From a virus: DNA of 44,111 nucleotides. Positions 2,563 to 44,111 of this stretch are shown here, piece after piece. Under the pieces are notes generated by a model. It worked only from the letters and a program-made list of their open reading frames with translations, was not told the origin of the DNA and did no database searches. Every line of letters starts with the position of its first letter. Position 1 is the stretch's first letter. The stretch lies in the IMG/VR virus record IMGVR_UViG_3300028892_001354; one strand, 5' to 3'. The translations under genes and the position numbers were made by a program.

Positions 2563-2571
2563 TTTTCCTGC

Positions 2572-3296: not shown

Positions 3297-3325
3297 AGCT
3301 GTCACTTCGGTGATGGCTTTTTTGT
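3297..3325 (+). terminator. Rho-independent terminator (9-bp stem, UUCG tetraloop, T6 run)
   Basis: AGCTGTCAC-TTCG-GTGATGGCT followed by TTTTTTG. Confidence 0.8.
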
Positions 3326-4320: not shown

Positions 4321-4357
4321 ATACAATTAAACCATCAAAGATAAAGGGTGATGGTGC

Positions 4358-15518: not shown

Positions 15519-15546
15519 TTAGCGATATTTAAGGAGGAAGAATACT

Positions 15547-16098: not shown

Positions 16099-16403
16099 GC
16101 TTTATTGCACGTCACTATTCTTATACCGAGGAGTATGTATTAGAGCATACTCCTGAGTGGTCAAAGCGAAAGTTTGATGATGCATTAAAACAGCAGTATA
16201 CCGATTATAAAGAGAATGTATATGGTCAATTCCAAAGTCTATTGTTATTTATGGACCAATTACTCAATGAAGGGAAAAACTTTGAAAGTATTCTTCCTCC
16301 TACTTATGAAGATGCTATTGCTGCAAATACAGAGTCACCAAAAGAAAAACAAAATAGCCAGTTCAAACAAGGAACATGGTGGAAGCCTGAGCAGAACGCT
16401 TAG
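15547..16403 (+). CDS. Tail assembly chaperone frameshift product (gpGT analogue; -1 slip at 16047-16053)
   Basis: ORF 15978..16403 is in the -1 frame relative to 15547. The heptamer A_AAT_TTA is in the correct zero-frame phase (CCA AAT TTA). Post-slip reading gives KFREGINRIGKQ. Confidence 0.7.
16047..16053 (+). promoter_or_regulatory. Candidate -1 programmed frameshift slippery heptamer AAATTTA
   Basis: X_XXY_YYZ pattern in phase with the upstream ORF, inside the 120-nt overlap. Confidence 0.6.
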
Positions 16404-16436
16404 GCTTCTTTATTTTTGAGGGAAGGAGGAAAATAC

Positions 16437-19400: not shown

Positions 19401-21164
19401 AAGGATCTTCCTGGTAATACAAAAGCATTATTGAACGAATGGGGTAAGTCAATTGAAACATTCTTCAATGAACTTCCTGGAAAAGCAAAAAAACAATTAG
19501 ATACATGGAAAAAAGAAATCTCCACATGGTTTTCAGATAAAGCTAGTGACATCAAGAAAGATTTAGATACTTGGTGGACAGAAATGAGTAACTGGTTTGA
19601 TTCTATCCCAGGGAAAATGAAATCCAAGCTTATCAGTTGGAAAGAAGCGATTGCTCAATGGTTTAGAGAACAAGATGAAGAGAACACTCGTTTCTACAAT
19701 CAATTGTGGAATTCAATGTCTGAGTGGTTTTCATCTATTCCTAGCAAAATGCAATCGAAGTTAAGTGAATGGGGTACTGCTATTTCTTCATGGTTCGATG
19801 AAACTGTTTCTTCATGGAGTGAAAACCTTGAAAAATGGTGGACTGGTATTTCTACTTGGTTTGATGAAACCACTTCTCGTTGGGGTGAACAGTTTGAAAA
19901 GTGGTGGGCCTCTGTAGTTACGTGGTGGACCACTCTCCCAGAACGTATGTGGGAACAACTCGAATTATGGTGGAATTCTATTTCTACTTGGTTTGATGAA
20001 ACTACAACTAGATGGGGAGAAAACCTTGAGAAATGGTGGGCTTCTATCGTTACATGGTGGACTACTTTACCTGATCGTATGTGGGAACAACTCGAATTAT
20101 GGTGGAATTCTATTTCTACTTGGTTTGACGAAACCACTACACGTTGGGGCGAGAACCTAGAAAAATGGTGGAACTCTATAGTCACATGGTGGACTACTCT
20201 TCCAGAACGTACAATGGAGCAACTTGAATTATGGTGGGATTCCATTGCTAATTGGTTTACTGAAACTGCAGCAAATTGGGATGCAGCCTTAGAACAATGG
20301 TGGGATTCCATCGCTAATTGGTTTAATAGTCTATCTTCCAAACCAGAAATAAAAGATTCTGCTAAGAAATCCATGGACGAAATGAAAAAAGGTTTCGAGG
20401 AGAAAAAGCCTGAGCTAATTGACAAATTAGGTGAAATTATAGTTGATGCGTTTGTTGCTCTTTTAGCAGCCGCTGGTATTATCGCTCTAGCAGTCGGACG
20501 TGAATTGTTAAAACGGTTTATTAATGGTATGGCAGGGGAACAGAAAAATGCTGAAATCACTGCGGATACTATTGGTAAAGCAGTCTTAAATATGCTCGAA
20601 AAAATTCCGCTATTTGGTGCTGCTGTAAAAGTTATAAAAGAATTTTCAAAAGGGCTTGATGATGGATTTAAAGATGCACGCGAAACTGTGAGTGGATGGA
20701 TAGAAAAGATTAAAGGGCTTTTCGATTTTAAACTCCAACTTCCAGAAATCACAATTCCGAAACTGCCACGGTTACCTCAACCTAAAATAAGCGGTAGTTT
20801 TAGTTTGAATCCACCATCTGTACCAAGCCTTGAATGGCATGCGAACGGTGGTTTCTTCGACAAAGCATCAATTATTGGTATTGGTGAAAAAGGACGAGAA
20901 GCAGCAGTTCCTCTTGTTGGTCGTCGGATGGATCCATTTGCTGATGCTGTATTCGGACGATTCGCTGAACAGTTTGGCAATATGTTTAGCGCAGCCGCTC
21001 CTGCTTCTGCAGATATGATGAGTGGATATACAGGACAACCAATCGTCTTACAAGTAATACTTAACAGCAAAATTCTTGCAGAAGAAACAGTTGATGATAT
21101 GAGTGTATTACTTGATCAGAAAGCAAACGCAACTGGGAGGAGGAATGGGGTAGTACGATGGTAA
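16437..21164 (+). CDS. Tape measure protein (1575 aa)
   Basis: Size and position. Central hydrophobic segments. Trp-rich periodic repeats. RBS GGAAGGAGG precedes the ATG at 16437. Confidence 0.9.
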   Translation: MGNAGRSTIDITADDRQARRTYERFFDFVEGTGRRTQRRMRDFNPMEGIERGMRSFSPSEILDQEMRRMENRLSRFSPERQMEYQMRRMARSVARPIQNLPDHLRPFRDDLIRTRFEIQRMGMVGTESLDQLADAAIRSQVPLERMMSATSSGKAAARAIQELGDTTRTTQLAVLGLSRDGKVRVSTEEAQQQMRRFNEHVVQTRQRLEQLRDAGDMASYHEGMRQLERQMQQVDRAMRAAAQGGTAYTSMLDQLGIHTANAANRAAIAMERMRPSFMRSIEHMNAMKTQSQKMMDALGDTSRIQRIDRAFLQVGDRLERMARQGSAANIALRQLGPNASMKDLMDRIRLINTGLMRMQQVALATGIVLTGFTVVMAKAAHGPDPAEIRQQQAEITKVYEDALKSRTEAIYNATNLFKEMKIEPVKSETLMKNLDEQVGIYKRWVDNMKNLSARIPVEMKEELYKMGPEAAGEIKALSNMSEPELARYVELWREKHRLAREAALDELGRLKEETKAKIKELQASLKPLGIAWEKFKSTWAEALAPFVEIWGKIAAVVVDAGTAVGEFVNKLNELNPDIVKLIGMFTYLFTAMTLILAPMAIGIGRAAGMRAAFHALWMVISPVVLGFLRIAGMASIVSAALVILGGTIMKLWKHSETFRNSIINGWNDIKSTILGAIEPIIPKLEELWQSFLKLINVLVGSEGSSTQSFWKGLGDAIGTVINLLMKLLIPTIKLVATAFANDLGIAIDILTLIVKGLTFVIQKVKEFSSAIAAIWSGDKATATSILEKMGFSPKAINDIISSVENIKKNVTDLYNTIQKGAETAQKYVKALFASFKGDNVQAVKLLESLGFSDKEIDRFLRAIENVKKAFNSYVKFLKDEILPNYLDFFKEFSRIAGDLLGVFFKLLDGITQFLTALLAGDWDGVVEGIKTIFSALSDAAKLQMELAISVLKLLFKNLWALLPDSMTEPIEKSLKNLQQWYNDTIKFFKDLPGNTKALLNEWGKSIETFFNELPGKAKKQLDTWKKEISTWFSDKASDIKKDLDTWWTEMSNWFDSIPGKMKSKLISWKEAIAQWFREQDEENTRFYNQLWNSMSEWFSSIPSKMQSKLSEWGTAISSWFDETVSSWSENLEKWWTGISTWFDETTSRWGEQFEKWWASVVTWWTTLPERMWEQLELWWNSISTWFDETTTRWGENLEKWWASIVTWWTTLPDRMWEQLELWWNSISTWFDETTTRWGENLEKWWNSIVTWWTTLPERTMEQLELWWDSIANWFTETAANWDAALEQWWDSIANWFNSLSSKPEIKDSAKKSMDEMKKGFEEKKPELIDKLGEIIVDAFVALLAAAGIIALAVGRELLKRFINGMAGEQKNAEITADTIGKAVLNMLEKIPLFGAAVKVIKEFSKGLDDGFKDARETVSGWIEKIKGLFDFKLQLPEITIPKLPRLPQPKISGSFSLNPPSVPSLEWHANGGFFDKASIIGIGEKGREAAVPLVGRRMDPFADAVFGRFAEQFGNMFSAAAPASADMMSGYTGQPIVLQVILNSKILAEETVDDMSVLLDQKANATGRRNGVVRW
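19848..20243 (+). repeat. Three tandem 132-bp (44-aa) repeats inside the tape measure gene
   Basis: Unit starts at 19848, 19980 and 20112; a degenerate fourth at 20244. A ~50-bp perfectly identical segment occurs at both internal junctions (19944-19997 and 20076-20129). Confidence 0.9.
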
Positions 21165-27920: not shown

Positions 27921-28754
27921 ATGGGACAAATTATCGATATTTCGAAATGGAATGCAGGTTCAATAAAATGGGATGTACTCGGTCCGCAATTAGATTTATG
28001 TATTTGCCGTGTACAATACGGTTCTAATATGATAGATCAATATTATAATGGATATGTAAAAGAATTAGAGAAACGAAATATTCCCCACGCTGCTTATGCA
28101 TATGGTTGTTTTGTAAGTGTAAATGATGCGATTAAAGAAGCAGATGACTTTATGGCTCGTGTTAGTCCTAATGCTAAATTCTTAGTTTTAGATACTGAAG
28201 ACGATACATTGAAATCATGTGGAGAGCAAAAGATAGCGGAAGCATCACAAGCCTTCATTAATCGTTGTAAGTCTAAAGGGTGGAAAGTTGGTTTTTATGT
28301 AAGTCACCACATGTATAATAAATACGGATTAAGCAATGTAAAAGCTGATTTCCTTTGGATTCCGCGATATGGCGGACCTAGACCTAAATACCCTTGCGAT
28401 ATTTGGCAATATGCAGACGGAGAAACAGGTGGATGGCTTGATGGAATCGGAAAGGTTGATTTAAATTCTTTAATTGGAAACAAATCTTTGTATTGGTTTA
28501 TCGGAAATGAACAACCTGTTTCTAATGGCGGTTATCAATATGTTAAATCTGGTGAATTCGGTGCTAACTTAATTGAAGAAGCTATCCAAGCGATGAACGA
28601 AAGAGGAACAAAGGGGAAAGTGATTGTTAATCCATTAACAGGTCTTGCTCATATCGAAACAGAGGTTTTACCTAATCCAGAATTAGACAAGATTACCTGG
28701 TGGATGGATACTAGACCTGAAGGTAAATGGTTTTACGAGTACTTTAAAAAATAA
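27921..28754 (+). CDS. Endolysin: GH25 muramidase with a C-terminal wall-binding region
   Basis: IIDISKWNAGSIKWDVL and LVLDTEDD (D-x-E) match GH25 signatures. Last gene of the late operon. Confidence 0.8.
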   Translation: MGQIIDISKWNAGSIKWDVLGPQLDLCICRVQYGSNMIDQYYNGYVKELEKRNIPHAAYAYGCFVSVNDAIKEADDFMARVSPNAKFLVLDTEDDTLKSCGEQKIAEASQAFINRCKSKGWKVGFYVSHHMYNKYGLSNVKADFLWIPRYGGPRPKYPCDIWQYADGETGGWLDGIGKVDLNSLIGNKSLYWFIGNEQPVSNGGYQYVKSGEFGANLIEEAIQAMNERGTKGKVIVNPLTGLAHIETEVLPNPELDKITWWMDTRPEGKWFYEYFKK

Positions 28755-28790: not shown

Positions 28791-29024
28791 TTACATCCAA
28801 AAATCATCATAATGTACATCTTTATTAGTTAGCTTCTTCAATGTCTTTATAATCTTTTGTGCATTCTTCATGGTTGGTGAAAACTTATCTCCTTGGCATA
28901 CACGACTAATTGTGGACTTACTGACACCACTTCTTTCTGCTAATTCTTGTTGAGTAATTTTGTTTTTCTCCAGAAAATTGGAGAGCTTTGACTTTCTCCC
29001 TTTGCCAGATATAAGCCATCCCAT
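28791..29024 (-). CDS. XRE-family HTH regulator (77 aa)
   Basis: ITQQELAERSGVSKSTISRVCQG HTH. RBS GGAGTG precedes the ATG at 29024. Confidence 0.75.
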   Translation of the reverse strand: MGWLISGKGRKSKLSNFLEKNKITQQELAERSGVSKSTISRVCQGDKFSPTMKNAQKIIKTLKKLTNKDVHYDDFWM

Positions 29025-29111
29025 CGTAATCACTCCTGTTTCTAAGTTCTTAGTACAAGAGTGGGCAAAAATTTCATTTTTTAAACATCCCGAAAATAGG
29101 AATTTAAAACA

Positions 29112-29642
29112 TCATGAAAACCTACGTTTCAATAAGGAGAGCTTCTTTCCTGGTTCTTCAGCGTAATACTTCATGTAATCGCACATTAGAATATTAATCA
29201 GTTTATCCGCTGTGTAACCGTGTAAAGGGAATGAATGAGCCATATCAGAGAAAAACACTTCAATCCGTCTTAATGTTCTTCTATCAATCTTTACATCAAT
29301 CGTTCCATACCGTTCATCATTCTCATTAAATTCTAATTCGTAATCCGTATAGTGTTTCTTGCTCTCTAAAATTTGATATAGCTGTTCCATACTGTTCTTG
29401 GACCTTATATGTTCAAGAAAGTCTTCAACAAGTATTTCAGCTAGATCACTAGCATTACACTCATAATCCTCTTCTTCCATATCTTCGATAATAATATTCA
29501 TGCGGAATAAGTAAATTTTGAGCATCTTCACTTCAAAACGGTATTTCTCTTTTAATTTCCATTCGATTTTAGTTCGTTCCCACCAACTATCGGCACTCAT
29601 TAACTGTATTTCTTTTGTCATCACATCGTATTTACTGTACAT
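29112..29642 (-). CDS. Hypothetical acidic 176-aa protein
   Basis: RBS GAGAGGTGA precedes the ATG at 29642. No recognisable motif. Confidence 0.6.
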   Translation of the reverse strand: MYSKYDVMTKEIQLMSADSWWERTKIEWKLKEKYRFEVKMLKIYLFRMNIIIEDMEEEDYECNASDLAEILVEDFLEHIRSKNSMEQLYQILESKKHYTDYELEFNENDERYGTIDVKIDRRTLRRIEVFFSDMAHSFPLHGYTADKLINILMCDYMKYYAEEPGKKLSLLKRRFS

Positions 29643-29653
29643 GCTGTCACCTC

Positions 29654-30034
29654 TCACATTGTGCGTAATGCAAAGCATAAAATACGTGTTGCAGCTGCTC
29701 TTTGTGAAACTCCCCATTCAATCGCTAATTGGACAAGCTTATAATGTGTTTCCTGCTCCAATTTCGCATGGATGTACTTCTTAGTGTCTTTATATTCATA
29801 CGCATGTATTTCACTTATATAATCAATTCTGAGATGTTCTGTAATTAATTTGGACATATATTGTGTAGTAGTTATACTTTGTTGGAATGCTGAGGACCTT
29901 ATTAATTGTCTTTGTATTTCATTTACGGGGATTTTAACGTCTTTCTTTTTGTCAGAACGAATTTTACGAGGTTGTATGTTTGTTATTGTAGTAGATTTTT
30001 TTGAAGGATTAAACATTGGGTTAACATTACTCAT
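29654..30034 (-). CDS. Tandem ribbon-helix-helix DNA-binding protein
   Basis: Two beta-helix-helix units (VKIPVNEIQRQLIRSS...YMSKLITEHL and YIHAKLEQETHYKLVQLAIEWGVSQRAAATRIL). RBS AGAGGGGA. Confidence 0.55.
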   Translation of the reverse strand: MSNVNPMFNPSKKSTTITNIQPRKIRSDKKKDVKIPVNEIQRQLIRSSAFQQSITTTQYMSKLITEHLRIDYISEIHAYEYKDTKKYIHAKLEQETHYKLVQLAIEWGVSQRAAATRILCFALRTM

Positions 30035-30174
30035 GCTGCTCCCCTCTTTCAAAAATTAACCTCCTCTCTCTTGTTTATCTTAGGGACACTTTTCCATAAT
30101 TCCAATATTCCATGAAACAATGGTTGCAAGAGAGGAAGGAGGTTATATTTTTCTTAAATAACTATTGATTCATG

Positions 30175-30525
30175 TTATTCGTAATTAATCATACCTGCAA
30201 AGTCATCAAGATTAATCTCTTCTTTAACTTCTTTTACAGGTGTGTCTTCAACGCCTATCAAAGATTTAATAAATGCTTCAAGAGCTTTAACAGCCATTGG
30301 ATTAAGTAATTGCTCTTTTTCATCTGTTGTTAATGAAAAACCAAGAGGTATAGTGATTTCTGTGTGATTATCCTTCTTGGCTTCCTTGTCTAATATCCAA
30401 TAAACAAGTTTATTTCTTGAAATATCTCTGTTTTTATTCAAAAAATCTAAGGTTTGTTGTTCTGCATCAACTGGAACTTTAACAGTAAAAGTTTTACCAG
30501 GCTGAACATCTTTTATTTTTTTCAT
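30175..30525 (-). CDS. ParR-like centromere-binding adaptor
   Basis: Small protein immediately downstream of the actin-like ATPase in the same operon. N-terminal beta-strand KTFTVKVPVD is RHH-like. Confidence 0.55.
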   Translation of the reverse strand: MKKIKDVQPGKTFTVKVPVDAEQQTLDFLNKNRDISRNKLVYWILDKEAKKDNHTEITIPLGFSLTTDEKEQLLNPMAVKALEAFIKSLIGVEDTPVKEVKEEINLDDFAGMINYE

Positions 30526-30537
30526 GTATACCACCCA

Positions 30538-31644
30538 CTAATTAAGGCTTAATTCCTTCTGTTTGGCGATAACCAGTAATAACTTATAGTAAGCTTTAGC
30601 AATACTCCAAATGCTTTCTTCTGTATCTAAGAAGTGCATCTCGAATTGATTTTCATTTTTGTTGATATCTTCTAAAAATGATTTAACAATTGCTGCTGAA
30701 CCACCAACATTATGAATACTGTGTAAATCTCCAACTTCTTTCCATTTATCCACTAAATCAGCGTATTCTCTTACGGCAAATTCTTTTAAATGTTTCTCTG
30801 CAATTTCATAATAAGAAACTGGTTTACCATGCGGCCTAATAATATAAGCTTCATGTTTTGCAGTCATATTTTCAACAAGTTGCCTTCTTGATTTAAATAC
30901 ATCTACACGATAAGTAGTAAATACTTCTTTACGAATTGCATCTAAATACTCACCTATGCCTAAAGGGGAACCACTAGAATATTCGTTGTCAATTTGCCCC
31001 ATACGAATTACTGCTTTGTCAGTAGTGTTACCACCCATATCATTAATTAAGATGTTCTTTTGTCTTAACTCCGAATTTTGAGGCTTTAAATCTTCGCTGA
31101 TTGTTAAATTAATCATTGCTGCGAATCCTTCAACGTTTACAAAGATATCTTTAAACGAGATACGTACTTTTTTTCCTTCTAAATGAGGTGTTTTCTTAAA
31201 TTCAACAACATGAGTACCATCTAAAAGTTTTTTCTTAAACCCAGCGCGTTTTTCTTCTTTAACTTCGTCAACTGGAAGACCAGTAGATAGTAAGAATTCT
31301 GCATCAATTATATTTTTATCACTATTAGAAGCTGCTTCATAAGCTAATGCAGTTAACATTAAGATAGTTGTTTGGTCTGATTCGCTTTTTAAATCAGTAG
31401 CAGGAATTTGAGCGCTTTGTTTTTCCTTAGCAGCAAGAGTACCTACTGCATATGTTGCTGATTTTTTTAATGCTGAGGATGTGATATGTACATGCAATTC
31501 CTTTAATGGATCGTCACCTAATTCGATCACTTGTCTAGATTCCATTTCTTTAACCACGTTAGGAATGTATAATTTGTTTTCAAATCCATTAAACAAAGCT
31601 TTTAAAGCATCGTTTCCGGCATCAATAGCGGCTGTTATTAACAT
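30538..31644 (-). CDS. Actin-like plasmid segregation ATPase (ParM/Alp family)
   Basis: Phosphate-1 IDAGNDALK, phosphate-2 NDMGGNTTD, adenosine motif NVGGSAAIV. The ATG at 31644 is better spaced from the RBS GGGAGAG than the ATG at 31650. Confidence 0.85.
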   Translation of the reverse strand: MLITAAIDAGNDALKALFNGFENKLYIPNVVKEMESRQVIELGDDPLKELHVHITSSALKKSATYAVGTLAAKEKQSAQIPATDLKSESDQTTILMLTALAYEAASNSDKNIIDAEFLLSTGLPVDEVKEEKRAGFKKKLLDGTHVVEFKKTPHLEGKKVRISFKDIFVNVEGFAAMINLTISEDLKPQNSELRQKNILINDMGGNTTDKAVIRMGQIDNEYSSGSPLGIGEYLDAIRKEVFTTYRVDVFKSRRQLVENMTAKHEAYIIRPHGKPVSYYEIAEKHLKEFAVREYADLVDKWKEVGDLHSIHNVGGSAAIVKSFLEDINKNENQFEMHFLDTEESIWSIAKAYYKLLLVIAKQKELSLN

Positions 31645-31681
31645 TTTCATCTCTCCCTTTATTAATCAATATACCTAAATA

Positions 31682-31852
31682 GTAACACTAAGGTGTTACC
31701 TTTTCAATACATAGTATTACTTTGGTGACACCTTTATGACTAACACCTTATAAAAGCACTAAACTTATTAACCCTAATCGTATTACTGTGACACCTTTAT
31801 GACTAACACCTTATAAAAGCACTAAACTTATTAACCCTAATCGTATTACTGT
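31682..31852. repeat. parC-like centromere: 18-bp palindrome plus 2.1 tandem copies of a 63-bp unit
   Basis: GTAACAC-TAAG-GTGTTAC at 31682-31699. Identical 63-bp units at 31725-31787 and 31788-31850. Six (T/G)(A/G)ACAC(C/T) half-sites. Directly upstream of the parM-like operon. Confidence 0.8.
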
Positions 31853-31988
31853 TTGCCATTCCATATACTTGGCAAACGTGCTCCTATATATTCAGAAAAA
31901 CACTTATAGCGAGGTAGGGAAGGCATAGGCTTGTCCTCCCTAAAATTCTTTAAAATCCCTTATATACTGAGTTTTTAAAAATATAAAA

Positions 31989-32009
31989 TTAATACGGTAT
32001 GTGAAATTT
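31989..32009 (-). promoter_or_regulatory. 21-bp motif AAATTTCACATACCGTATTAA (copy B, on the minus strand), upstream of parC/parM
   Basis: Exact reverse complement of 1915..1935. Confidence 0.5.
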
Positions 32010-32079
32010 AAACAACCTAACACATTATTTTTCACGGAAGAAAATCTATTTTTAAAATAGCTAAAATAGCAACCACGAG

Positions 32080-32733
32080 CTATTGTTCATTTGCATAACC
32101 TAATTCAAATGAATAATATTTTTCTAAGGACGCTGCAGCCCCTACATAAGTTAAAATCAAAGGAACTTCTTCTAACGATTGGTAATTAATAGTTTTTAAA
32201 TTTGTCTTTTTTCTCTCTAATTGTATAGTCTTTATATTTACACCTAGTTGTTCATGTAAATGCTCGTTAATACGACGTAATATAGGTTCAGATCCATAAA
32301 TTCTTAATCGTGCTGAGAAATATGGGCCACGTCTACCTTTAGTCTTCTTTCTATTCAAATCATGACGATATCCAATATACGCTTTTATAAAAGCAGAATC
32401 ATTAAATTCTCCTCGAGGGTACTCACGCTCATAACGAGAACCAGATTCCCATCCCATTTTTATTATCTCTTGTATAAATGGATGTTTTAATCCCACGGAG
32501 CAATACCATTCTGATGAATTCCGCTCCTTTTCTTCACTAGTACGAACTACACTATTAATCAATGTTGAAAATTCATATACAAGTTCATAAGAGTTATCTT
32601 GAAAAATAAAACTCCCAGAGCTTTCATGTCCATTTCTCCATACGAATGCTAACGCCTTTGCAAATTCATCTGACTTCCTAAATTCATTGAACCACTTTTG
32701 TTCTGACGTTTGTACAACTAACGATTTACGCAT
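32080..32733 (-). CDS. Hypothetical protein, possibly a degenerate LAGLIDADG-like fold
   Basis: Two pseudo-repeats (ALAFVWRNGHESSGSFIF and FIKAYIGYRHDL...ARLRIYGSEPILRRINEHL) resemble LAGLIDADG helices and strands but lack clear acidic catalytic residues. Confidence 0.3.
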   Translation of the reverse strand: MRKSLVVQTSEQKWFNEFRKSDEFAKALAFVWRNGHESSGSFIFQDNSYELVYEFSTLINSVVRTSEEKERNSSEWYCSVGLKHPFIQEIIKMGWESGSRYEREYPRGEFNDSAFIKAYIGYRHDLNRKKTKGRRGPYFSARLRIYGSEPILRRINEHLHEQLGVNIKTIQLERKKTNLKTINYQSLEEVPLILTYVGAAASLEKYYSFELGYANEQ

Positions 32734-32771
32734 ATTCTAATCCCCCTGTGAAGAACTAATCTTATATATTT

Positions 32772-33914
32772 TTATTGTTCTAACCAGTTATAGAATAAAA
32801 GAGTACCTTCAAATTTTGTTTTATTTTCATGAATAAATGATTTTGCCAATTCAACAGTGTTTTCTCTTTCGATAACCATTGTAAGTCGTCCGGCGTAATA
32901 TATAGCAGGAACTTGAATAGGATCTGATGTTTGACTACGTTCATGTATATCTTGTAAGAATTCACTAATTGACTTGTCCACTTGATTCATAGTTCCAATA
33001 CGTACATCTTTGTTTTGCAATGTCTTTAATACATCAAGAAATTCGCTTCGTTTTGTAAATACATTTTTTTCTTTTAATCTTTCAACAACAGATTGATAGA
33101 ATAAATGAGACATTTGATTTATATATTCTTCTTCCTCGTCATTTTCTAAATCTAGAGCATCCACTATATTATGTAATTTATCTAATTTAGAAGAAGAGGA
33201 ATAATTACTCTTTGCTGTATTCTGTGTGGGAGTCTCTGTGGAATTCTCTGTTAAAGATTTAACGGATTCGTTAGAGCTAATTCCCGATTCAGTGATAGCA
33301 TTTTCACTATTTGGTATTTCCGTTTTAACGGATTCGTTAAAACCATTGTTTTCAATACTTTCTGGTGTAATTTCGTTTTCACCATTTGGTAAAAACGATG
33401 AGCCTAAAGGGTTTGCAGGTAATAATGGTTCTTGGAATGAATATTGCTGCTGATCCTGATTTTTTTTATTTTCTTCTGCTTGTTTTTCTTTTTCTTTTTG
33501 TAATTGACGTTCATATTCTTCGCGAACTTTTTTGTTTAAAAGTTTTAAAAATACATCTGTATGTAAGTGTATATGGACCATAGGGTCACCATTAAACTTA
33601 TACACTTTTTTAGTTATGATTTTTTGGTCTACTAAAATCTTGCTAGCACGATCAAACTGACGAGGGCCAATTCGAATTTCATCCCACCAATCTGTACGAC
33701 CTTTAGCCAACCATAATTTTTTATCTTTCCAGATACGTAGCTTTGTAATGTTAGTGTCTTTAGATGGCAGATGCCAATAAACAATTTGGGATAGTAATAA
33801 ACCTGCGACAACATCTTCATCAGCCACGTCTACATATACTTTTTTGAAATCAATAGTATCGGTTGTTGCACGTTCCCACATTAAAAATTCTTGAAAGTTA
33901 TTAAATCCGTTCAT
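32772..33914 (-). CDS. Putative replication initiator (Rep) with a low-complexity central linker
   Basis: Adjacent to an AT-rich region with DnaA boxes and upstream of the par operon. N-terminal domain VAGLLLSQIVYWHLP...WWDEIRIGPRQFDRASKIL looks like a winged-helix replication-organizer. RBS GGAGGA precedes the ATG at 33914. Confidence 0.55.
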   Translation of the reverse strand: MNGFNNFQEFLMWERATTDTIDFKKVYVDVADEDVVAGLLLSQIVYWHLPSKDTNITKLRIWKDKKLWLAKGRTDWWDEIRIGPRQFDRASKILVDQKIITKKVYKFNGDPMVHIHLHTDVFLKLLNKKVREEYERQLQKEKEKQAEENKKNQDQQQYSFQEPLLPANPLGSSFLPNGENEITPESIENNGFNESVKTEIPNSENAITESGISSNESVKSLTENSTETPTQNTAKSNYSSSSKLDKLHNIVDALDLENDEEEEYINQMSHLFYQSVVERLKEKNVFTKRSEFLDVLKTLQNKDVRIGTMNQVDKSISEFLQDIHERSQTSDPIQVPAIYYAGRLTMVIERENTVELAKSFIHENKTKFEGTLLFYNWLEQ

Positions 33915-34146
33915 AAAAAAATCCTCCAATTTTTTACCCCGACTAAAAAATGGGTATAAGAAATTAGAGGATTGTTATTCATATTTTTTTATGCTATCAT
34001 ATTAATAGAAATAGCACTTTTGAATATGTGATAACAAACCTCGTGTTCCAATTTTCATCGGTTGTAGTAGGCGGCCAAACTTACAGAACCTTTGAAAATT
34101 TCGTCGGGGTTTTTTTATTTTTATAATTTATATGAAAAATTTACAT

Positions 34147-34176
34147 TTGCAATTTATATATCTACCACTTTATGAT
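34147..34176 (+). promoter_or_regulatory. Candidate sigma-A promoter (TTGCAA-18-TATGAT) for a short + strand RNA in the origin region
   Basis: Hexamers at 34147-34152 and 34171-34176. A strong terminator lies ~40 nt downstream and there is no ORF between them. Confidence 0.35.
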
Positions 34177-34183
34177 AGCAGAA

Positions 34184-34242
34184 CTTTGTTGAAAAAAGAA
34201 GAGTAAAAGCGAAGACCGTCAAATAATTGACGGTCTTTTTTG
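34184..34242 (+). ncRNA. Candidate ~60-nt small RNA (possible copy-control countertranscript)
   Basis: Bounded by the candidate promoter and the terminator AAGACCGTCAA-ATAA-TTGACGGTCTT plus T6 (34212-34242). No + strand CDS is upstream to terminate. Confidence 0.35.
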
Positions 34243-34264
34243 TGGATAAGTAAGGTTATCCACA
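34241..34264. promoter_or_regulatory. Two perfect DnaA boxes in inverted orientation (TGTGGATAA ... TTATCCACA)
   Basis: Exact 9/9 matches to the TTATCCACA consensus at 34241-34249 (complement) and 34256-34264. Next to an AT-rich stretch at 34105-34165. Confidence 0.6.
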
Positions 34265-34380
34265 GCGTTGAATGAATAAATAAAAAGAGAGAGCAATTCG
34301 CTCCCTTACCACAATTGGTAAAATTATGTAAAATTTTACCACTGGTCAATGGAAAAGATTTCTTTTATTATGAAATCAAA

Positions 34381-34725
34381 TCACAGTATTTCGTGGTTCT
34401 CACCTAAGAATCGTACATAATGGTCAAGCTGTTTACAAAAGTTCTCTTTTTGGATTTCAGAAAGCGCTGCATACGTTTTTTGAACACCAAATAGAGTATT
34501 ATGTAGCATTTCATCATCTGTAGCGTCAGTTCGCCCAGTAAGCACATCTAATGTTACGTTGAAATAGGAGGCGAGACGAAACAACGTCGCAAGATCTGGC
34601 TCAGAAAAACTATTTTCATAATTGTTGATTTGGCTTCTGCTGAGATTAAGGTCGTGTGCTAAATCCGCTTGTCTTAACGAACGACTTTTTCTAAGTTTTT
34701 TTAAAGTATCACCTAAAGTTTTCAT
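34381..34725 (-). CDS. XRE-family HTH repressor (114 aa)
   Basis: LRQADLAHDLNLSRSQINNYENS HTH. The ATG at 34725 (MKTLGDT) is preferred over the longer track ORF. Divergent from aimR. Confidence 0.8.
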   Translation of the reverse strand: MKTLGDTLKKLRKSRSLRQADLAHDLNLSRSQINNYENSFSEPDLATLFRLASYFNVTLDVLTGRTDATDDEMLHNTLFGVQKTYAALSEIQKENFCKQLDHYVRFLGENHEIL

Positions 34726-34754
34726 ACTATTAGTATAGTTACTGTAATATCTAT

Positions 34755-34791
34755 ATACTATAAATGATAGGTATATTGTCATTTATAGTAT
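34755..34791. promoter_or_regulatory. 13-bp-arm inverted repeat, candidate operator upstream of the XRE repressor
   Basis: ATACTATAAATGA-N11-TCATTTATAGTAT. Confidence 0.45.
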
Positions 34792-35234
34792 AATGATTTA
34801 TTATTAATCTTTTTTTGGAAATAAATATAAGAACTTATGTTCTAATTTTGTTTAATTGGTGGTAATATATGCATATAAGATCTTGAAATACGCAAATAAA
34901 TGATTGTATATTTTTATCCGTGAAACACAAGAAACGTTGATATGTAAAGGTTTCTCAACTTTCTCAACTATTATCTGATAATCGTAGGACTGAATATTGG
35001 GAAATTTGTGGTATCATGAGGGTAACTAAAAACGGACGCAAAGAAAAGACCCACGGTATAAATGGTGTTGATCGCACCATTTATACTGCCTCCCTAGTCA
35101 TGGTAGGGAAACATTGTCGCGAGTCTTGTACACACTTATTATAACACAACTTAGAGTTTAAGTGACGCGTTTTCCTTTATATGTAAGAAGTTGCGGAGTT
35201 GACGTGTCTTTTTGTCCAAAGGAGGACAAATTTC

Positions 35235-36443
35235 ATGGAAGTTGTATTGGATTTGAAAGACATGAAGCAAAAATTGGAATCGAACGGTTACACAAATCGT
35301 AAATTAGCAACGCGTTTCAAAGTGACTCATACAACGGTAAATAGTTATTTTAACAAACAAGGAAAATTTGATTTTATGCATTTTGTTGACTCTTTAAGAT
35401 TATATGAACCTAAGGATGTTAAATTTAGAAGAGAATGCATTAAAGAAATAATTCCTACATTATCACATAGAAATTTAAAATTAGCCCTTGAAGTATTGGA
35501 TATGTTTGGTGAATATGATCTGCAAGAATTAGTAATTGAAAGGATAATGAATTCAAACGAGAAAAAAGATGAAAAAAAGAAAGGTAATTCATTAACTGTA
35601 CGGACAAATATAAGGCTTGCTAAATTTTATCAACTTCTGAGAAAAAGAAGTGAAGGTAATATTACAGCAAATGATTTCTTTGAAGAAGTGGATAAGAAAA
35701 GAAAATCACAAAAGAATACAGAAAATGACTTAATGATTGTCTCTGATTTTAGTGCGATGTATTCTTACTTAGATTTCAGTAACTACACAAAAGTTAACGA
35801 GTATATTCAAAGTGTGTTGCCACGAATCGAGCAGGTTAGTAAGCATACAAATCAAAATTCATTTTCACTTCGAATTAAAGAAATGCAAATTTCTATCAAA
35901 ATGCATAGTGAAGGTAATATTAATGGAGCTAGAGATATTTGTTTAGAAATATTAAATGATCCATACAATTATTATATAAGCACAAAAGCAATCGCTTATT
36001 GTAAACTAGGTGAAAGCTATGCATTAACCGATTACGAAAAAGCTAAAGATTATATTTATACTGCACTTGAGATTCTGGGTAATCCAACAAATAAAAAATT
36101 GAAAATTAGAAAAGAAAGAATACTTAATGTGCTATTATTTCTAAAGATTTATCATGGGAAAGACCTAGATACAATTGATCGAACGAAACTTGATTTAGCG
36201 GAACTTGCATTCTTTTATATTAAAACAGGTAAGAAGGGTGAAGCCTTAGAGATACTACGTGGTCTTAAACGACAGAATGGTTATCTAAGTAGTTTTCAAT
36301 TGTATTACATGGGGATTGCAATTGGAGGCGCTGAAGGTAAAAAATATTTAGAAATGTCCATAGAAAGTTTTTCTAAAACAGGCGATAATTTCTATATTTC
36401 ACTACCTATTAATGAATTGAAATGTTATAATAAGGTTATCTAA
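35235..36443 (+). CDS. aimR: AimR-like arbitrium peptide receptor (HTH plus TPR, RRNPP family)
   Basis: N-terminal HTH (NRKLATRFKVTHTTVNSYF) and a long helical repeat body. The C-terminus SIESFSKTGDNFYISLPINELKCYN resembles, as I recall it, the phi3T AimR C-terminus SIEYFKKSNDKFLIRLPLLELQKMG. Followed by a short secreted-peptide gene. Confidence 0.8.
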   Translation: MEVVLDLKDMKQKLESNGYTNRKLATRFKVTHTTVNSYFNKQGKFDFMHFVDSLRLYEPKDVKFRRECIKEIIPTLSHRNLKLALEVLDMFGEYDLQELVIERIMNSNEKKDEKKKGNSLTVRTNIRLAKFYQLLRKRSEGNITANDFFEEVDKKRKSQKNTENDLMIVSDFSAMYSYLDFSNYTKVNEYIQSVLPRIEQVSKHTNQNSFSLRIKEMQISIKMHSEGNINGARDICLEILNDPYNYYISTKAIAYCKLGESYALTDYEKAKDYIYTALEILGNPTNKKLKIRKERILNVLLFLKIYHGKDLDTIDRTKLDLAELAFFYIKTGKKGEALEILRGLKRQNGYLSSFQLYYMGIAIGGAEGKKYLEMSIESFSKTGDNFYISLPINELKCYNKVI

Positions 36444-36462
36444 GCAAGGGGTGGTGGAATGT

Positions 36463-36603
36463 TTGAAGTCTAAGTTATTTAAAGTTATTTTAACAATTGC
36501 GGCAGCTGCAACTTTTACATTTGCACCAGCTACAAAGCAGGAGAAAGTTAAAAATGTAGACGCGCCAGTAATGTATATGGACCCAAATCCGGGTGGCGGT
36601 TGA
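36463..36603 (+). CDS. aimP: AimP-like signalling pre-pro-peptide (46 aa)
   Basis: Not in the ORF track (<60 aa, TTG start). RBS AAGGGGTGGTGG lies 6 nt upstream. MKSKLFKVILTIAAAATFTFAPA is a signal peptide. C-terminus ...VMYMDPNPGGG. Starts 20 nt after the aimR stop. Confidence 0.7.
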   Translation: MKSKLFKVILTIAAAATFTFAPATKQEKVKNVDAPVMYMDPNPGGG

Positions 36604-42653: not shown

Positions 42654-42680
42654 ATTTTGTACAAAAGTGAGGGATAAGGG

Positions 42681-42884
42681 ATGGAACAATGTGAGTATTG
42701 TACTGGAAATTCGTATAAACGAAAGCCACTGATGCAAAACGGTAAAGGCGATTATTACGTCTCTATAAACAGTTGTAATTATTTAGAGGATAGTGAAGTT
42801 GGAGATAGAAACGTTAAGTTTTCTTTATTTGGAGAAAGAATAAATTTCTGTCCTATGTGTGGCAGGGAATTAAAAGAAAACTAA
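42681..42884 (+). CDS. Zn-ribbon protein (CEYC...CPMCG)
   Basis: RBS GTGAGGGATAAGGG. Confidence 0.6.
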   Translation: MEQCEYCTGNSYKRKPLMQNGKGDYYVSINSCNYLEDSEVGDRNVKFSLFGERINFCPMCGRELKEN

Positions 42885-42923
42885 ACAAAAGCGTTATTTG
42901 AAAATAAATTGGGGGAATGAGAA

Positions 42924-43292
42924 ATGGCTAGAAAACAAAAGGATAAAATCGTACGAGTTCAATTTGCGGAAAATCATGTAATGATGTTTGGTAATTCATA
43001 TAAAGCTTGGGAAGAACAACTGGATGAATACTTATGGTTATTAAAACGAGATGGGGAGCTACATTCCGTAAAAAGGGTAACTGTATCAGATAGCAAGTGG
43101 ATTTCGTGGGGCGGATTGAAGTGGTGCCCAGAAGAAAGGTTTCAACATCATTTAAATCGCGAAGGGTGTCAATCTGATGAATTAGACAATCCGAATCCAA
43201 GACAATATAAAGATATGAATTTCTATGAAGATATTACTATTACAAGAAAAGTGAATAAAGCCGTGTCTAATTATAAAAAAGGGATTTATTAA
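42924..43292 (+). CDS. Hypothetical protein (122 aa)
   Basis: RBS TGGGGGAATGAG. Confidence 0.6.
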   Translation: MARKQKDKIVRVQFAENHVMMFGNSYKAWEEQLDEYLWLLKRDGELHSVKRVTVSDSKWISWGGLKWCPEERFQHHLNREGCQSDELDNPNPRQYKDMNFYEDITITRKVNKAVSNYKKGIY

Positions 43293-43363
43293 TCCGACAG
43301 AGGGAAATTGGATACTTAAAATCATAATAAAATAGTTATTCGAATAAGAAAAGAGGAGCGGCG

Positions 43364-43510
43364 ATGAAGAAACAAAGATGGAGAAAAACAAAAGTTAAAA
43401 CTTGTTACTTATGTGACAAGAAATTAAATATAAACCAGATCCGAGGCATAAATGATTGGAGTTATAAAAACAAAATTTTGTATTGGTGTGAGGATTGCGT
43501 AGAGTATTAA
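43364..43510 (+). CDS. 48-aa Zn-ribbon protein (CYLC...CEDC)
   Basis: Below the track cutoff. RBS AAGAGGAG precedes the ATG at 43364. Confidence 0.5.
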   Translation: MKKQRWRKTKVKTCYLCDKKLNINQIRGINDWSYKNKILYWCEDCVEY

Positions 43511-43542
43511 AACAAAATTCTTATTGTATGACCAAAAATAAA

Positions 43543-43572
43543 AGAACCCGTTTGCTATAAACGGATTCTTCT
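43543..43572 (+). terminator. Hairpin/terminator ending the early rightward operon
   Basis: AGAACCCGTTT-GCTAT-AAACGGATTCT (one mismatch). Weak T tract. Confidence 0.45.
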
Positions 43573-43698
43573 CTCAAGGTCTGCAAGAAATTCAAGGTAA
43601 CTGGACCAGAGCACCATATTGAATTTCTTATGATATTAATGTATTCAAAGAAATCTAAAAGATGAATGGGAATTAAATAAAATCTTTATTTGGAAAGA

Positions 43699-43734
43699 AT
43701 TCAGCCCCTAACGGTGCGCTGTTAGGGGCTGAAT
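43699..43734. terminator. Strong 14-bp GC-rich hairpin
   Basis: ATTCAGCCCCTAAC-N8-GTTAGGGGCTGAAT. Confidence 0.5.
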
Positions 43735-43865
43735 CTCGAGAACTTTTATTAAAATTACATGAGGTTGATCAGTGAATGTAACTATCGATCTCTCGAATTA
43801 TAGCACTAAGTAAATTAAATTTACAACTTAATATTTACACTTAGTGATAAAAGATATGGAGGGGA

Positions 43866-44096
43866 ATGGAACGGATGAGACATACAAGAAATAGACAAAT
43901 GACAAAAATAGGTGAAGAAAATTTTATGGGAATGAAGAATATCAAAATTTCAACGATACGAAAGTTTGATGGAGAGTTTAATAATAGATTAGATCCAACT
44001 TTCCGGTGGCACAGAGATTATCATGGTATGAATATTGTATCTTTTAACCGTAAGGGTGAAGCATTTAAAACTAATGTGATAAAAGTTAGAAATTAA
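43866..44096 (+). CDS. Hypothetical 76-aa basic protein in an isolated transcription unit spanning the circular junction
   Basis: RBS GGAGGGGA precedes the ATG at 43866. Its 3' part is duplicated at 1..129. Flanked by hairpins on both sides. Confidence 0.55.
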   Translation: MERMRHTRNRQMTKIGEENFMGMKNIKISTIRKFDGEFNNRLDPTFRWHRDYHGMNIVSFNRKGEAFKTNVIKVRN

Positions 44097-44111
44097 ACAA
44101 AATCGTTATTT
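43968..44111. repeat. Terminal direct repeat, copy 2
   Basis: Identical to 1..144. Confidence 0.95.

Follow-up and report, generated by a model that had tools for sequence, protein, structure and literature searches.

The closest described systems are phages that persist as plasmids. The groups to which the relatives of the element studied here belong have been published as plasmid prophages (PMC8026635; PMC6669507). Among them, the Bacillus thuringiensis plasmid prophages phiS58, Waukesha92, TP21-T and pBMB46 form Group 4 of Piligrimova et al. 2021 (PMC8026635), and phage B83 is reported to be capable of a circular plasmid state in host cells (PMC6669507). This class of prophages carries ParM with an RHH adaptor, a replication initiator, RecU and an Xer-type or small serine recombinase (PMC8026635). 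Here, we analyzed a 44,111-nucleotide stretch of viral DNA (the window), the closest relatives of which are Waukesha92, phiS58, TP21-T and the B83-like pBTHD521-2, which have been recorded as phages and also as circular Bacillus plasmids. With a unit length of 43,967 bp, the window represents the complete genome of a temperate, siphovirus-like Bacillus cereus-group phage. Because it has its own replication, partition and dimer-resolution genes and no integrase, its gene content suggests that the prophage is most likely, and in our view very probably, kept as a low-copy circular plasmid and not integrated, a lifestyle already well described for its relatives.

The circle is closed by one feature:

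1-144, no strand: terminal overlap, a copy of 43968-44111, which makes a circle of 43,967 bp

The two copies are 100% identical (repeat family D3), and the first-pass annotation had also listed this 144-bp closing overlap; by itself, the overlap fits a plasmid and a circularly permuted, headful-packaged virion genome alike. Pfam searches identified the phage genes TerL (the terminase being of the T4-like type), portal/MuF, capsid, tail and endopeptidase-tail proteins, holin and a GH25 lysin, while helicase, primase and polymerase genes were not found among the annotated ORFs of the window. The element was found again as ∼10 contigs of the unit-length class (20 to 50 kb). Five contigs that were read (43,987 to 44,111 bp, the window among them) come from separate JGI metagenome samples and have no host flanks or genes on either side. 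Their starts are not random but cluster at window positions 42,670-497, a 1.8-kb region that is probably a hypervariable spot.

The maintenance genes form a leftward block at 28.8-34.8 kb:

28791-29033, minus: XRE-family HTH regulator, 77-80 aa (Pfam HTH_3, 8.9e-13), conserved in relatives
29112-30052, minus: two conserved genes of uncharacterized function (phrog_5875, ∼176 aa, 8e-119; phrog_5779, 132 aa, 9e-75)
30175-30525, minus: ParR-like centromere-binding adaptor, 116 aa (position directly 3' of parM; family alignment)
30538-31650, minus: actin-like partition ATPase of the ParM/Alp7A-like type, 368-370 aa (Pfam ALP_N, 1e-15; Alp7A_like_C, 1e-9)
32080-32733, minus: 217-aa protein (phrog_6640, 5e-63)
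32772-33914, minus: replication initiator candidate, 380 aa, true start ATG at 33914 (context, weak PHROG matches, fold)
34381-34782, minus: XRE-family HTH regulator, 133 aa (Pfam HTH_3, 5e-15), with syntenic HTH genes in all relatives

The contiguity of this block and its XRE regulators, both claimed by the first-pass annotation, are borne out, and every element that it listed lies at or near the position given. The 133-aa regulator heads the block, divergent from aimR, and the smaller one is its right-hand border and adjoins the lysin terminator. The phrog_5875/phrog_5779 pair accompanies the block across numerous phages and plasmids of the B. cereus group, and its DNA is 86-90% identical to that of IEBH, phage 250, PfNC7401 and plasmids. 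The gene order AimR/AimP, XRE-rep-217-aa gene-parM-adaptor-...-XRE, lysin is common to Waukesha92, phiS58, TP21-T and BMBtp3 and also occurs in circular plasmids of ∼45-52 kb in closed Bacillus genomes. Synteny extends to the HD-1 46.6-kb plasmid, pJ10_2, p52 and pBTHD521-2.

The 380-aa protein is called an initiator because of its context, weak PHROG matches (DnaD-like loader, 3.7e-7; O-like, 4.9e-4) and fold. In the AF2 model, a winged-helix N-domain (residues 1-118; pLDDT >90) is followed by a long helix (119-158), a disordered linker rich in Ser, Glu and Asn (162-256) and a helical C-domain (259-363). Its fold matches are generic wHTH proteins (4pql, 4pt7, 5kbj and 2v79 among them) with E values of 0.014 or higher, and it matched no family in Pfam, NCBIfam or PDB; homologues are annotated as "phage replication protein" and contain HTH_36 or DnaB_2. 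The gene and the DnaA boxes beside it stand as first annotated, whereas the label "Rep-like" has no counterpart in these family databases. In pJ10_2 and Waukesha92, this slot is taken by a RepA_N + DnaB_2 initiator. That the initiator is not of the RepA_N type of its relatives, yet lies behind the same ∼350-bp DnaA-box/leader cassette, is a new detail. The 217-aa protein is always encoded 3' of rep, irrespective of Rep type, with 34-37% identity to the pJ10_2 and p52 versions. It belongs to a family with an uncharacterized domain (131 representatives, some fused to N-terminal HTH domains) that matched nothing in Pfam and PDB. A short repeated element lies downstream of this gene:

31989-32012, minus: 24-bp element with an inverted copy at 1912-1935 (I4, 96% complementary)

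The two copies have equal orientation relative to their own downstream genes; the element overlaps a weak promoter-like site (32005-31978), and related copies lie just 3' of the 216/221-aa gene in p52 and pJ10_2.

Five features in and upstream of rep bear on the origin of replication:

33258-33391, no strand: internal repeats in the linker-coding part of rep (repeats D2, D3)
33915-34125, minus: conserved rep leader (alignment, RNAalifold)
34110-34161, no strand: AT-richest 50 bp (92% A+T by base composition) of the whole 28.7-35.2 kb block
34212-34237, no strand: hairpin (11-bp stem), flanked on both strands by T runs, that separates the DnaA boxes from the AT-rich stretch
34241-34264, no strand: inverted pair of perfect DnaA boxes, TGTGGATAA-N6-TTATCCACA, 327 bp 5' of the rep ATG

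The DnaA boxes of the first-pass annotation were recovered at 34241-34249 (minus) and 34256-34264 (plus), 6 bp apart, and are the only perfect TTATCCACA matches in the 44 kb. In pJ10_2, in p52 and in two assemblies of B. cereus, the pair is kept at the same distance; Waukesha92 has one degenerate box. Between the DnaA boxes and the rep ATG, five elements are 81-90% identical, while the DNA just upstream is 26-35% identical. The AT-rich stretch is a candidate DNA-unwinding element, and the hairpin looks like a bidirectional terminator. In the leader, pairing is predicted between AAUCCUCU and the Shine-Dalgarno sequence of rep farther downstream, GGAGGAUU; RNAalifold gives 52 pairs, 4 with compensatory changes and most invariant, and the leader matched no Rfam family at threshold. 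On this model, the leader is a candidate for translational copy control. Within the linker-coding DNA of rep, the palindrome-containing 16-mer TTTAACGGATTCGTTA occurs twice, 66 bp apart, 25-nt repeats occur twice, 75 bp apart, and a hairpin lies at 33322-33343. This region is 93% conserved among three relatives, and its repeats are candidate iterons that would place the origin within rep.

Two perfect DnaA boxes beside the AT-richest 50 bp of the block are a classical origin signature. Nevertheless, it is quite possible, if somewhat short of an even chance, that the DnaA-box pair and the 350-bp cassette are not the origin but a transcription-control/leader module for rep, made up of an operator bound by DnaA or a repressor, a bidirectional terminator and a leader masking the ribosome-binding site, and that the true origin lies inside rep. 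The cassette is common to elements with unrelated initiators and is, thus, easier to explain as a promoter/leader than as initiator-specific iterons, and a hairpin terminator and an anti-Shine-Dalgarno pairing are both present. In RepA_N plasmids, the origin is located within rep; the RepA_N Rep of pJ10_2 and Waukesha92 is also internally repeated (GDLNNFSH, twice), as the rep linker-coding DNA here has repeats and palindromes. However, these repeats double as a coding sequence for the protein repeat NESVK (residues 193 and 215) and are kept only in part in p52. We infer two alternative locations for the origin, namely the repeats in the DNA that codes for the Rep linker or the DnaA boxes farther upstream together with the 92% A+T stretch.

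The partition locus is completed by a noncoding element upstream of parM:

31682-31850, minus: parC-like centromere and operator (repeat and palindrome searches)

ParM matches phrog_691 ("partition protein", 3e-56) and, among PDB sequences, 4xe7 (5.8e-14) and pCBH ParM. Its ATP motifs are intact, i.e., phosphate-1 IDAGNDALK (9-17), phosphate-2 DMGGNTTD (204-211) and VGGSA (315-319). Homologues are 74% identical on ∼50-kb B. cereus-group plasmids and 41-52% identical on other Bacillales plasmids. The adaptor matched no curated family; a low-confidence AF2 model (pLDDT 42) predicts two successive beta-alpha-alpha units, after which comes a C-terminal tail, G(M/L)INYE, that is conserved. The centromere contains two perfect 63-bp units (31725-31850), and AAGGTGT occurs twice in each unit; of the nine copies of this motif in the window, five fall within 31690-31812. 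The palindrome GTAACAC-CTTA-GTGTTAC (31682-31699) overlaps a TTGAAA-17-TACTAT promoter ∼30 bp 5' of parM. One copy of the element from a metagenome has an identical array. The first-pass annotation had proposed an actin-like ParM ATPase, which the Pfam, PHROG and PDB matches and the motifs confirm, with a ParR-like partner and a parC repeat array. An adaptor does follow parM directly and repeats do precede it; the RHH calls, however, are predictions only, and the array is small.

Far from this block lie the recombinase and its putative site:

4201-4325, plus: res-like recombination and autoregulation site (half-site map; 5-6 half-sites related to TGTCTCA/TGAGACA)
4358-4930, plus: small serine recombinase, 190 aa (Pfam Resolvase, 2.7e-46; HTH_7, 4.9e-8)

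The catalytic Ser9 of the enzyme is set by a YARVS motif, and its HTH is C-terminal. Orthologues with 80-88% identity hold the equivalent slot in Bacillus plasmids, before the terminase genes and, in those for which the upstream flank was read, behind the gene for the late sigma factor. That this is the sole recombinase and that a tyrosine or large serine integrase is lacking, both stated previously, held up in several searches. Pfam gave no other site-specific recombinase among ORFs of at least 150 aa other than the 1582-aa tape-measure-like ORF (16416-21164), and the pJ10_2 integrase had no tblastn match in the window. In the 639 six-frame stop-to-stop ORFs of the circularized genome, no tyrosine or large serine recombinase was found; tyrosine-recombinase queries returned only noise (best E 0.14 with phmmer and 0.39 with an HMM built from the enzymes of three relatives), as did a phmmer search for a second resolvase (best E 0.45).

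The res-like cluster lies 33-157 bp 5' of the recombinase start codon and contains two dyads, one of 28 bp (TGTCTCA-N14-TGATACA) at 4201-4228 and another at 4285-4312. A genome-wide search for the dyad pattern gave a single occurrence (0.01 expected), and the blocks are kept in pJ10_2, p52 and pBc53, i.e., in four elements including the window. This cluster is a new detail. Because the multi-half-site cluster is conserved and present only once in the genome, we propose that the enzyme acts as a plasmid dimer resolvase; the multimer-resolution role suggested by the first-pass annotation is supported to this extent, although the sequence is nearer to Gin-type enzymes. Indeed, the best solved-structure match is Gin (6.3e-45 versus 9.3e-31 for gamma-delta resolvase), the top PHROG is "DNA invertase," the pBc53 orthologue is annotated "Min," and pJ10_2 has a tyrosine recombinase besides the small serine enzyme. 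We nevertheless consider it unlikely that the enzyme is a DNA invertase of the Gin/Hin/Min type or a mere regulator, with dimers left to host XerCD/RipX-CodV or RecU. The genome has a single site cluster and, therefore, no inverted partner site, and a repeat search of the window showed tail-fibre genes without flanking inverted repeats. Moreover, hix and gix are 26-bp sites, whereas the res, six and resH sites of Tn3/gamma-delta, beta recombinase and Sin consist of multiple half-sites, and 5-6 half-sites across ∼125 bp directly 5' of the gene correspond to the latter layout. Finally, the window has no Xer-type enzyme of its own, unlike Waukesha92 and B83.

Altogether, gene content, synteny with circular plasmids and the published plasmid prophages support the plasmid-prophage lifestyle that had been suggested for this element. 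The genes active in the prophage would be those of the leftward block, which lies together with the lysogeny genes. The two-domain winged-helix initiator and its invariable 217-aa partner would start theta replication, host DnaA and the host helicase-loading machinery would carry out the rest, and the conserved leader may limit Rep synthesis by sequestering the rep ribosome-binding site. The adaptor would bind the repeat/palindrome centromere over the parM promoter and capture ParM filaments, which would push sister copies apart, while the serine recombinase would convert replicon dimers to monomers at the single res-like site. Exit from the plasmid state would be decided by the arbitrium cassette and the CI/Rha switch.

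One close isolate relative, GCA_025518725.1, is 94-95% identical to the window in the rep and terminase regions, and its 56-kb contig passes from phage DNA into chromosomal genes, ending in DNA with 99.8% identity to chromosomal DNA; the junction falls within a YomQ-like gene that a prophage remnant on the chromosome also carries, and it could be an assembly chimera through this gene. This junction, the clustered break points of the contigs and a T4-like terminase that fits headful packaging, so that a circular assembly is expected from virion DNA too, would suit an element with no plasmid state, in which the contigs are virion or lytic-replication DNA, rep serves lytic replication only and lysogeny, if any, uses another integration route, e.g., homologous recombination with prophage remnants or host Xer; we regard this as very improbable, since a purely lytic or an integrated phage would have no use for an intact type II partition locus and centromere or for a res/recombinase pair, rep, par and regulators are grouped on the lysogeny strand, the syntenic relatives occur in finished genomes as closed circular plasmids and have been published as plasmid prophages, and the 639 ORFs include no integrase.

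Group 4 shares with the window the lysogeny/maintenance order (aimR-aimP, XRE-rep-∼220-aa gene-parM-adaptor-two conserved genes-XRE, lysin), the DnaA-box/leader cassette (81-87% identical) and RecU and the late sigma factor (87-89% DNA identity). By contrast, its Rep is RepA_N + DnaB_2, its ParM (344 aa) has no BLAST similarity to that of the window, an Xer-like tyrosine recombinase that the window lacks precedes the lysis genes, and the structural genes are mostly unlike. In vB_BtS_B83/pBTHD521-2 (Group 3; PMC6669507), ParM is 74% and the adaptor 48% identical, parM is preceded by the same promoter with the GTAACAC palindrome, and the maintenance genes of an arbitrium-controlled phage also run leftward; however, B83 has a DnaD/RepA-like initiator and two XerC/D-type recombinases where the window has an unclassified winged-helix initiator and a small serine recombinase. 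The window-type initiator (84-94% identity), followed by a 216-aa gene, occurs in p52 of B. mycoides and two B. cereus draft contigs, and the window-type serine recombinase (82-88%) with its upstream site cluster occupies the equivalent slot in pJ10_2, p52 and pBc53. These plasmids and drafts differ in their ParM/adaptor cassettes (337 and 407 aa), in accessory genes between XRE and rep and in their lysis genes; they are unpublished as phages.

Among partition systems, R1 ParMRC and pLS20 Alp7ARC (type II) have the same centromere-ATPase-adaptor order, the actin-fold nucleotide-binding motifs are those of type II ParMRC and of the solved ParMs 4xe7 and pCBH ParM (6ixw), and in type II systems the centromere likewise overlaps the operon promoter. 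R1 ParR, however, has no detectable similarity to the adaptor, and the R1 centromere has two blocks of five 11-bp iterons versus two 63-bp units and one palindrome here. The recombinase shares its catalytic domain and C-terminal HTH with Tn3/gamma-delta resolvase-res, Sin-resH, beta recombinase-six and Gin/Hin, and the res/resH/six systems also have a multi-half-site cluster directly 5' of the gene; Tn3-type resolvases are more distant in sequence than Gin-type invertases, and no characterized res site has so far been matched to the subsite spacing. Phage P1, with its RepA and iterons, ParA/ParB type I partition and tyrosine recombinase Cre acting at lox, has no sequence relationship to the window. 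P1, the archetypal phage-plasmid and cited in PMC6669507, shares the logic of the window, i.e., an initiator with DnaA boxes at the origin, active partition and a dedicated dimer-resolving recombinase.

The window combines a phage genome with plasmid-type replication and partition genes, i.e., an initiator candidate, ParM, and a candidate adaptor, and it is a new mosaic among the plasmid prophages of the Bacillus cereus group. The class considered is that of phage-plasmids, or plasmid prophages, in the sense of Pfeifer 2021 (PMC7969092) and Piligrimova 2021 (PMC8026635), and placement in this class is correct but ordinary. The ends of the window are identical (1-144 equals 43968-44111), giving a circle with a unit length of 43,967 bp; its G+C content is ∼35%, and all DNA and protein matches are to the B. 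cereus group. The rightward genes form a full tailed-phage set for packaging, morphogenesis, and lysis. The gene block, DnaA boxes, repeats, and lone recombinase listed in the first-pass annotation were all located in the window, the principal genes being the following:

4358-4930: small serine recombinase, 190 aa (Pfam Resolvase 2.7e-46, plus HTH_7)
5669-7087, rightward: large terminase TerL, T4-type
7084-9354, rightward: portal/MuF protein
11466-12563, rightward: capsid protein
Rightward: tail tube protein, Dit-like protein, and endopeptidase-tail protein
16416-21164, rightward: tape-measure-like ORF, 1582 aa
27139-27627, rightward: holin
27921-28754, rightward: GH25 lysin with PlyG-type wall-binding domain
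28791-34782, leftward: block with, in order, XRE regulator, initiator, 217-aa gene, ParM, adaptor, two conserved unknowns, and a second XRE regulator
34381-34782: XRE regulator heading the block
33914-32772, leftward: initiator candidate, 380 aa
30175-30525, leftward: adaptor, 116 aa, the next gene after ParM in the block

Further genes encode RecU, a late sigma-like factor, a dUTPase, a Rha antirepressor, and an AimR/AimP arbitrium pair. The arbitrium cassette (35199-36603) is divergent from the maintenance block and consists of an AimR receptor (Pfam AimR, 1.5e-40) and, after it, an AimP-like pre-peptide of 50 aa with the C-terminal sequence DPNPGGG. The tape-measure-like ORF contains five copies of a 66/132-bp repeat (19769-20336) encoding W-rich units.

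Several observations are consistent with maintenance of the element as an extrachromosomal plasmid, a lifestyle that is well documented for its clade. First, the syntenic relatives, which have been deposited as phages too, are present in finished genomes as closed circular plasmids. Second, according to Piligrimova et al. 2021 (PMC8026635), plasmid prophages of B. cereus s.l. carry exactly the same toolkit as the window, i.e., a ParM-like protein with an RHH adaptor, a replication initiator, RecU, and an Xer-type or small serine recombinase; for the phage B83, a circular plasmid state in the host has been described (PMC6669507). Third, about ten contigs of 20-50 kb carried the element in our look-ups, and no host genes were found in the flanks examined of the five unit-length contigs that were read with coordinates (43,987, 43,990, 44,051, 44,087, and 44,111 bp, including the window), which come from separate JGI metagenome samples. 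Headful-packaged virion DNA would be expected to give a circular assembly likewise. The starts of the contigs from independent metagenome copies all fall within 1.8 kb (42670-43967 plus 1-497 of the window), and the gene content right after the dUTPase gene varies between samples; this stretch is probably hypervariable and interrupts assemblies. A larger relative, a JGI 3300028612 contig of 63,582 bp, encodes the very same recombinase as the window and has packaging and head genes that are nearly identical; its early region is different and carries a glutaredoxin, a trimeric dUTPase, and an HNH gene.

One relative is joined to chromosomal DNA. In the closest isolate relative, GCA_025518725.1 (94-95% identity in the rep and terminase regions), the contig JAOPSZ010000016.1 is 56,088 bp long, and its last 5.3 kb are 99.8% identical to chromosomal DNA with thioredoxin, cation efflux, PAP2, and Spo0M genes and an integrase, the latter belonging to a resident prophage remnant. 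At this locus (15315-20651), the switch from phage to chromosome falls within a YomQ-like gene; by Pfam, no YomQ- or XkdX-like gene was found in the window. Either the phage DNA integrated there through homologous recombination or the assembly is chimeric.

In the partition locus, ParM has the Pfam domains ALP_N and Alp7A_like_C, matches phrog_691 (“partition protein”) and, in a PDB sequence search, the solved ParM sequences 4xe7 and pCBH ParM, and contains the nucleotide-binding motifs of an actin-like ATPase (IDAGNDALK 9-17, DMGGNTTD 204-211, and VGGSA 315-319). Homologues with ∼74% identity are encoded on ∼50-kb B. cereus-group plasmids, including the B83-type plasmid prophage pBTHD521-2, and homologues with 41-52% identity on many other Bacillales plasmids. 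For the adaptor, a set of 5.8 billion proteins contained only six clustered relatives, and there was no curated family match (Pfam, NCBIfam). The protein is 48% identical to the adaptor of pBTHD521-2, with a conserved C-terminal G(M/L)INYE tail, and the B83-type adaptor has been predicted to have an RHH fold (PMC6669507); the AF2 model of the adaptor in the window has beta-alpha-alpha twice, at low confidence (pLDDT 42). Its position and size fit a ParR-like product encoded directly downstream of parM. Upstream of parM are two perfect 63-bp repeats, and of the nine copies of AAGGTGT in the window, five are clustered within 123 bp (31690-31812). A GTAACAC-CTTA-GTGTTAC palindrome overlaps a TTGAAA-17-TACTAT promoter ∼30 bp 5' of parM, and parM of pBTHD521-2 is preceded by the same promoter and palindrome. 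The region upstream of parM is thus a candidate centromere overlapping the parM promoter, as in type II ParMRC systems. Judged from the sequence, the layout is parC-parM-parR, and the locus appears to be a B83-type type II ParMRC system. Among the labels of the first-pass annotation, ParM is backed by a family match, and “Rep” and “RHH” are kept as putative, having none.

The initiator candidate had no Pfam, NCBIfam, or PDB match (Pfam E ≤0.01; sequence and profile PDB searches), and its name is one that we infer rather than one given by a family match. Weak matches were to phrog_6493 (3.7e-7) and phrog_9773 (4.9e-4), and some distant homologues are named “phage replication protein” and carry HTH_36 or DnaB_2. 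The close homologues, with 94% and 84% identity (two B. cereus drafts and the B. mycoides plasmid p52), always have the same context. It did not match RepA_N (PF06970), and hhalign against the Reps of the related Bacillus plasmid pJ10_2 and the syntenic phage Waukesha92 gave a probability of 0.1; the pJ10_2 Rep matches RepA_N at 1e-16. In Waukesha92 and pJ10_2, the slot of the initiator is occupied by a RepA_N plus DnaB_2 initiator, for which no similarity to the initiator in the window was detectable. In an AlphaFold model based on 57 homologues, a confident winged-helix N-domain (residues 1-118) is followed by a long helix, a disordered linker (162-256), and a helical C-domain. Foldseek against the PDB returned only generic winged-helix matches (E ≥0.014), including 4pql (“N-Terminal domain of DNA binding protein”), 4pt7 (“Structure of initiator”), and 5kbj (“Structure of Rep-DNA complex”), which we take to be the N-domain of staphylococcal RepA, and also the DnaD-N structure 2v79. 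These data tie the protein only weakly to DnaD/O-like initiators. A scan of one genome per species gave only distant relatives of the N-domain and was uninformative on lifestyle.

The N-domain (33560-33914) is well conserved and has no Pfam model; conserved positions include F10, W13, E14, Y27, D29, LLSQIxYW at 40-47, W68, R73, and W76. It is also encoded by Nostoc, Brevibacillus, and Halobacillus plasmids and by contigs of Anaerolineae MAGs.

In every relative, and with both Rep types, the gene directly after rep is the 217-aa gene (32080-32733, leftward in the window). Its product is a member of a domain family that is uncharacterised and comprises 131 representatives when clustered at 50%. 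No Pfam, NCBIfam, or PDB match was found (sequence and profile PDB searches). Some members are longer, and in these an HTH_7, HTH_23, or sigma-70 region 4 domain is fused N-terminally. A LAGLIDADG-like fold, considered on the basis of the sequence pattern, was dropped, as neither the protein nor ten distant relatives had Pfam support for it. No helicase, primase, or polymerase genes were present among the scanned ORFs, and replication would, therefore, depend on host functions.

A conserved DNA cassette of ∼350 bp extends from the DnaA boxes to the rep ATG and is 81-90% identical in five elements; the DNA just upstream of it is 26-35% identical. Its elements are the pair of DnaA boxes, a hairpin flanked by T runs on each strand, an AT-rich stretch, and a leader. 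The boxes (34241-34264) are an inverted pair 6 bp apart and the sole perfect TTATCCACA matches in the window, and the AT-richest 50 bp of the whole block (92% A+T) lie ∼80 bp from them. With perfect boxes and an adjacent AT-rich stretch, the cassette is a candidate DnaA-assisted origin. In the leader, i.e., the rep-proximal part, base pairing is possible between AAUCCUCU and the Shine-Dalgarno sequence of rep; the pairs are mostly invariant, and 4/52 show compensatory changes. Rfam detected nothing in the window at gathering thresholds. At permissive thresholds, Phe_leader, SIB_RNA, and ctRNA_pT181 were returned for 33880-34400, all sub-threshold, and we regard them as chance matches. Within rep, the linker-coding DNA contains a palindromic 16-mer twice, 66 bp apart, and a second 25-nt repeat. 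These repeats are possible iterons of the kind known from lambda O or RepA_N replicons; because they also encode the protein repeat NESVK (residues 193 and 215), this reading is one that we infer.

The one moderately new point is this conserved DnaA-box/leader cassette with unrelated initiators, together with the unclassified initiator-partner pair. We tentatively advance two linked proposals, which we consider doubtful when taken jointly. In the first, the cassette would be a portable, host-DnaA-dependent origin and copy-control module, made up of the inverted pair of perfect DnaA boxes, a bidirectional terminator, the 92% A+T stretch, and an RBS-masking leader. The initiators that it serves would come from two or more unrelated families, namely, RepA_N (Waukesha92 and pJ10_2) and that of the unclassified winged-helix protein (the window). 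In the second, the initiator and its 217-aa partner would define an undescribed theta-replicon family of Bacillus phage-plasmids.

The first-pass annotation had noted a single recombinase and no integrase, and four types of search bear this out. Pfam identified no integrase or other site-specific recombinase in ORFs ≥150 aa, the 1582-aa tape-measure-like ORF aside; tblastn with the pJ10_2 tyrosine recombinase found no integrase; and a three-relative tyrosine-recombinase HMM and phmmer with the resolvase domain gave only noise across 639 stop-to-stop ORFs of the circularised genome. Absence of an integrase is not a requirement for the phage-plasmid class. The recombinase has an N-terminal catalytic domain with its Ser in a YARVS motif, a C-terminal HTH, and a length in the range of ∼180-200 aa, as expected for a small serine recombinase. 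Orthologues with 80-88% identity are found at the equivalent position in pJ10_2, p52, and the related plasmid pBc53, i.e., before the terminase genes and, in p52 and pBc53, where the upstream flank was read, after a late sigma-factor gene. In the window, the late sigma-like gene is separated from the small genes preceding the recombinase by an ORF-free stretch of ∼760 bp (2563-3325) with a 30-nt inverted repeat (3130-3159/3200-3229).

The conserved blocks in the 160 bp upstream of the recombinase gene are TGTCTCA/TGAGACA half-sites. Five to six of them form a res-like cluster (4201-4325), which is conserved across four elements and is unique in the genome; a 28-bp dyad within it has one genome occurrence versus 0.01 expected. 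A lone multi-dyad cluster adjoining the recombinase gene is typical of res, resH, and six sites. The accessory site in the window has this resolvase-type arrangement, and no second dyad or inverted partner site for inversion, as in hix/gix-type invertase systems, was found in the whole genome. These findings lend support to the earlier suggestion that the enzyme serves in multimer resolution. Because the enzyme resembles Gin (6.3e-45) more closely in sequence than it does gamma-delta resolvase (9.3e-31), we regard its role as a plasmid dimer resolvase as quite probable and not as settled. A 24-bp inverted repeat (23/24) is present 30 kb apart at 1912-1935 and 31989-32012, both copies being oriented alike relative to their own downstream genes, and related copies lie directly 3' of a 216/221-aa gene in p52 and pJ10_2. 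An invertase acting on this repeat was rejected, as the repeat is unrelated to the TGTCTCA half-sites and its copies are oriented like a shared promoter/operator; the element may be a shared promoter/operator or a module boundary.

Plasmid prophages of the B. cereus group are often deposited as “plasmids,” and their phage diversity is thereby hidden. The window is a well-delimited example in which initiator, partition cassette, and dimer-resolution enzyme are swapped independently around conserved cis-elements, and this swapping agrees with published accounts, in which the phage genes are conserved and the plasmid genes variable; existing knowledge of phage-plasmids is left unchanged. The block at 30.1-34.4 kb is a compact candidate mini-replicon and the recombinase/res unit (4201-4930) a testable dimer-resolution cassette, which would allow the unclassified initiator and the res system to be studied in Bacillus. 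Instead of the serine enzyme of the window, Waukesha92 and B83 have Xer-like tyrosine recombinases, and pJ10_2 has both types, serine and tyrosine. Compared with the RepA/ParAB/Cre-lox trio of P1, the block in the window would function in the same way but is built of unrelated parts.
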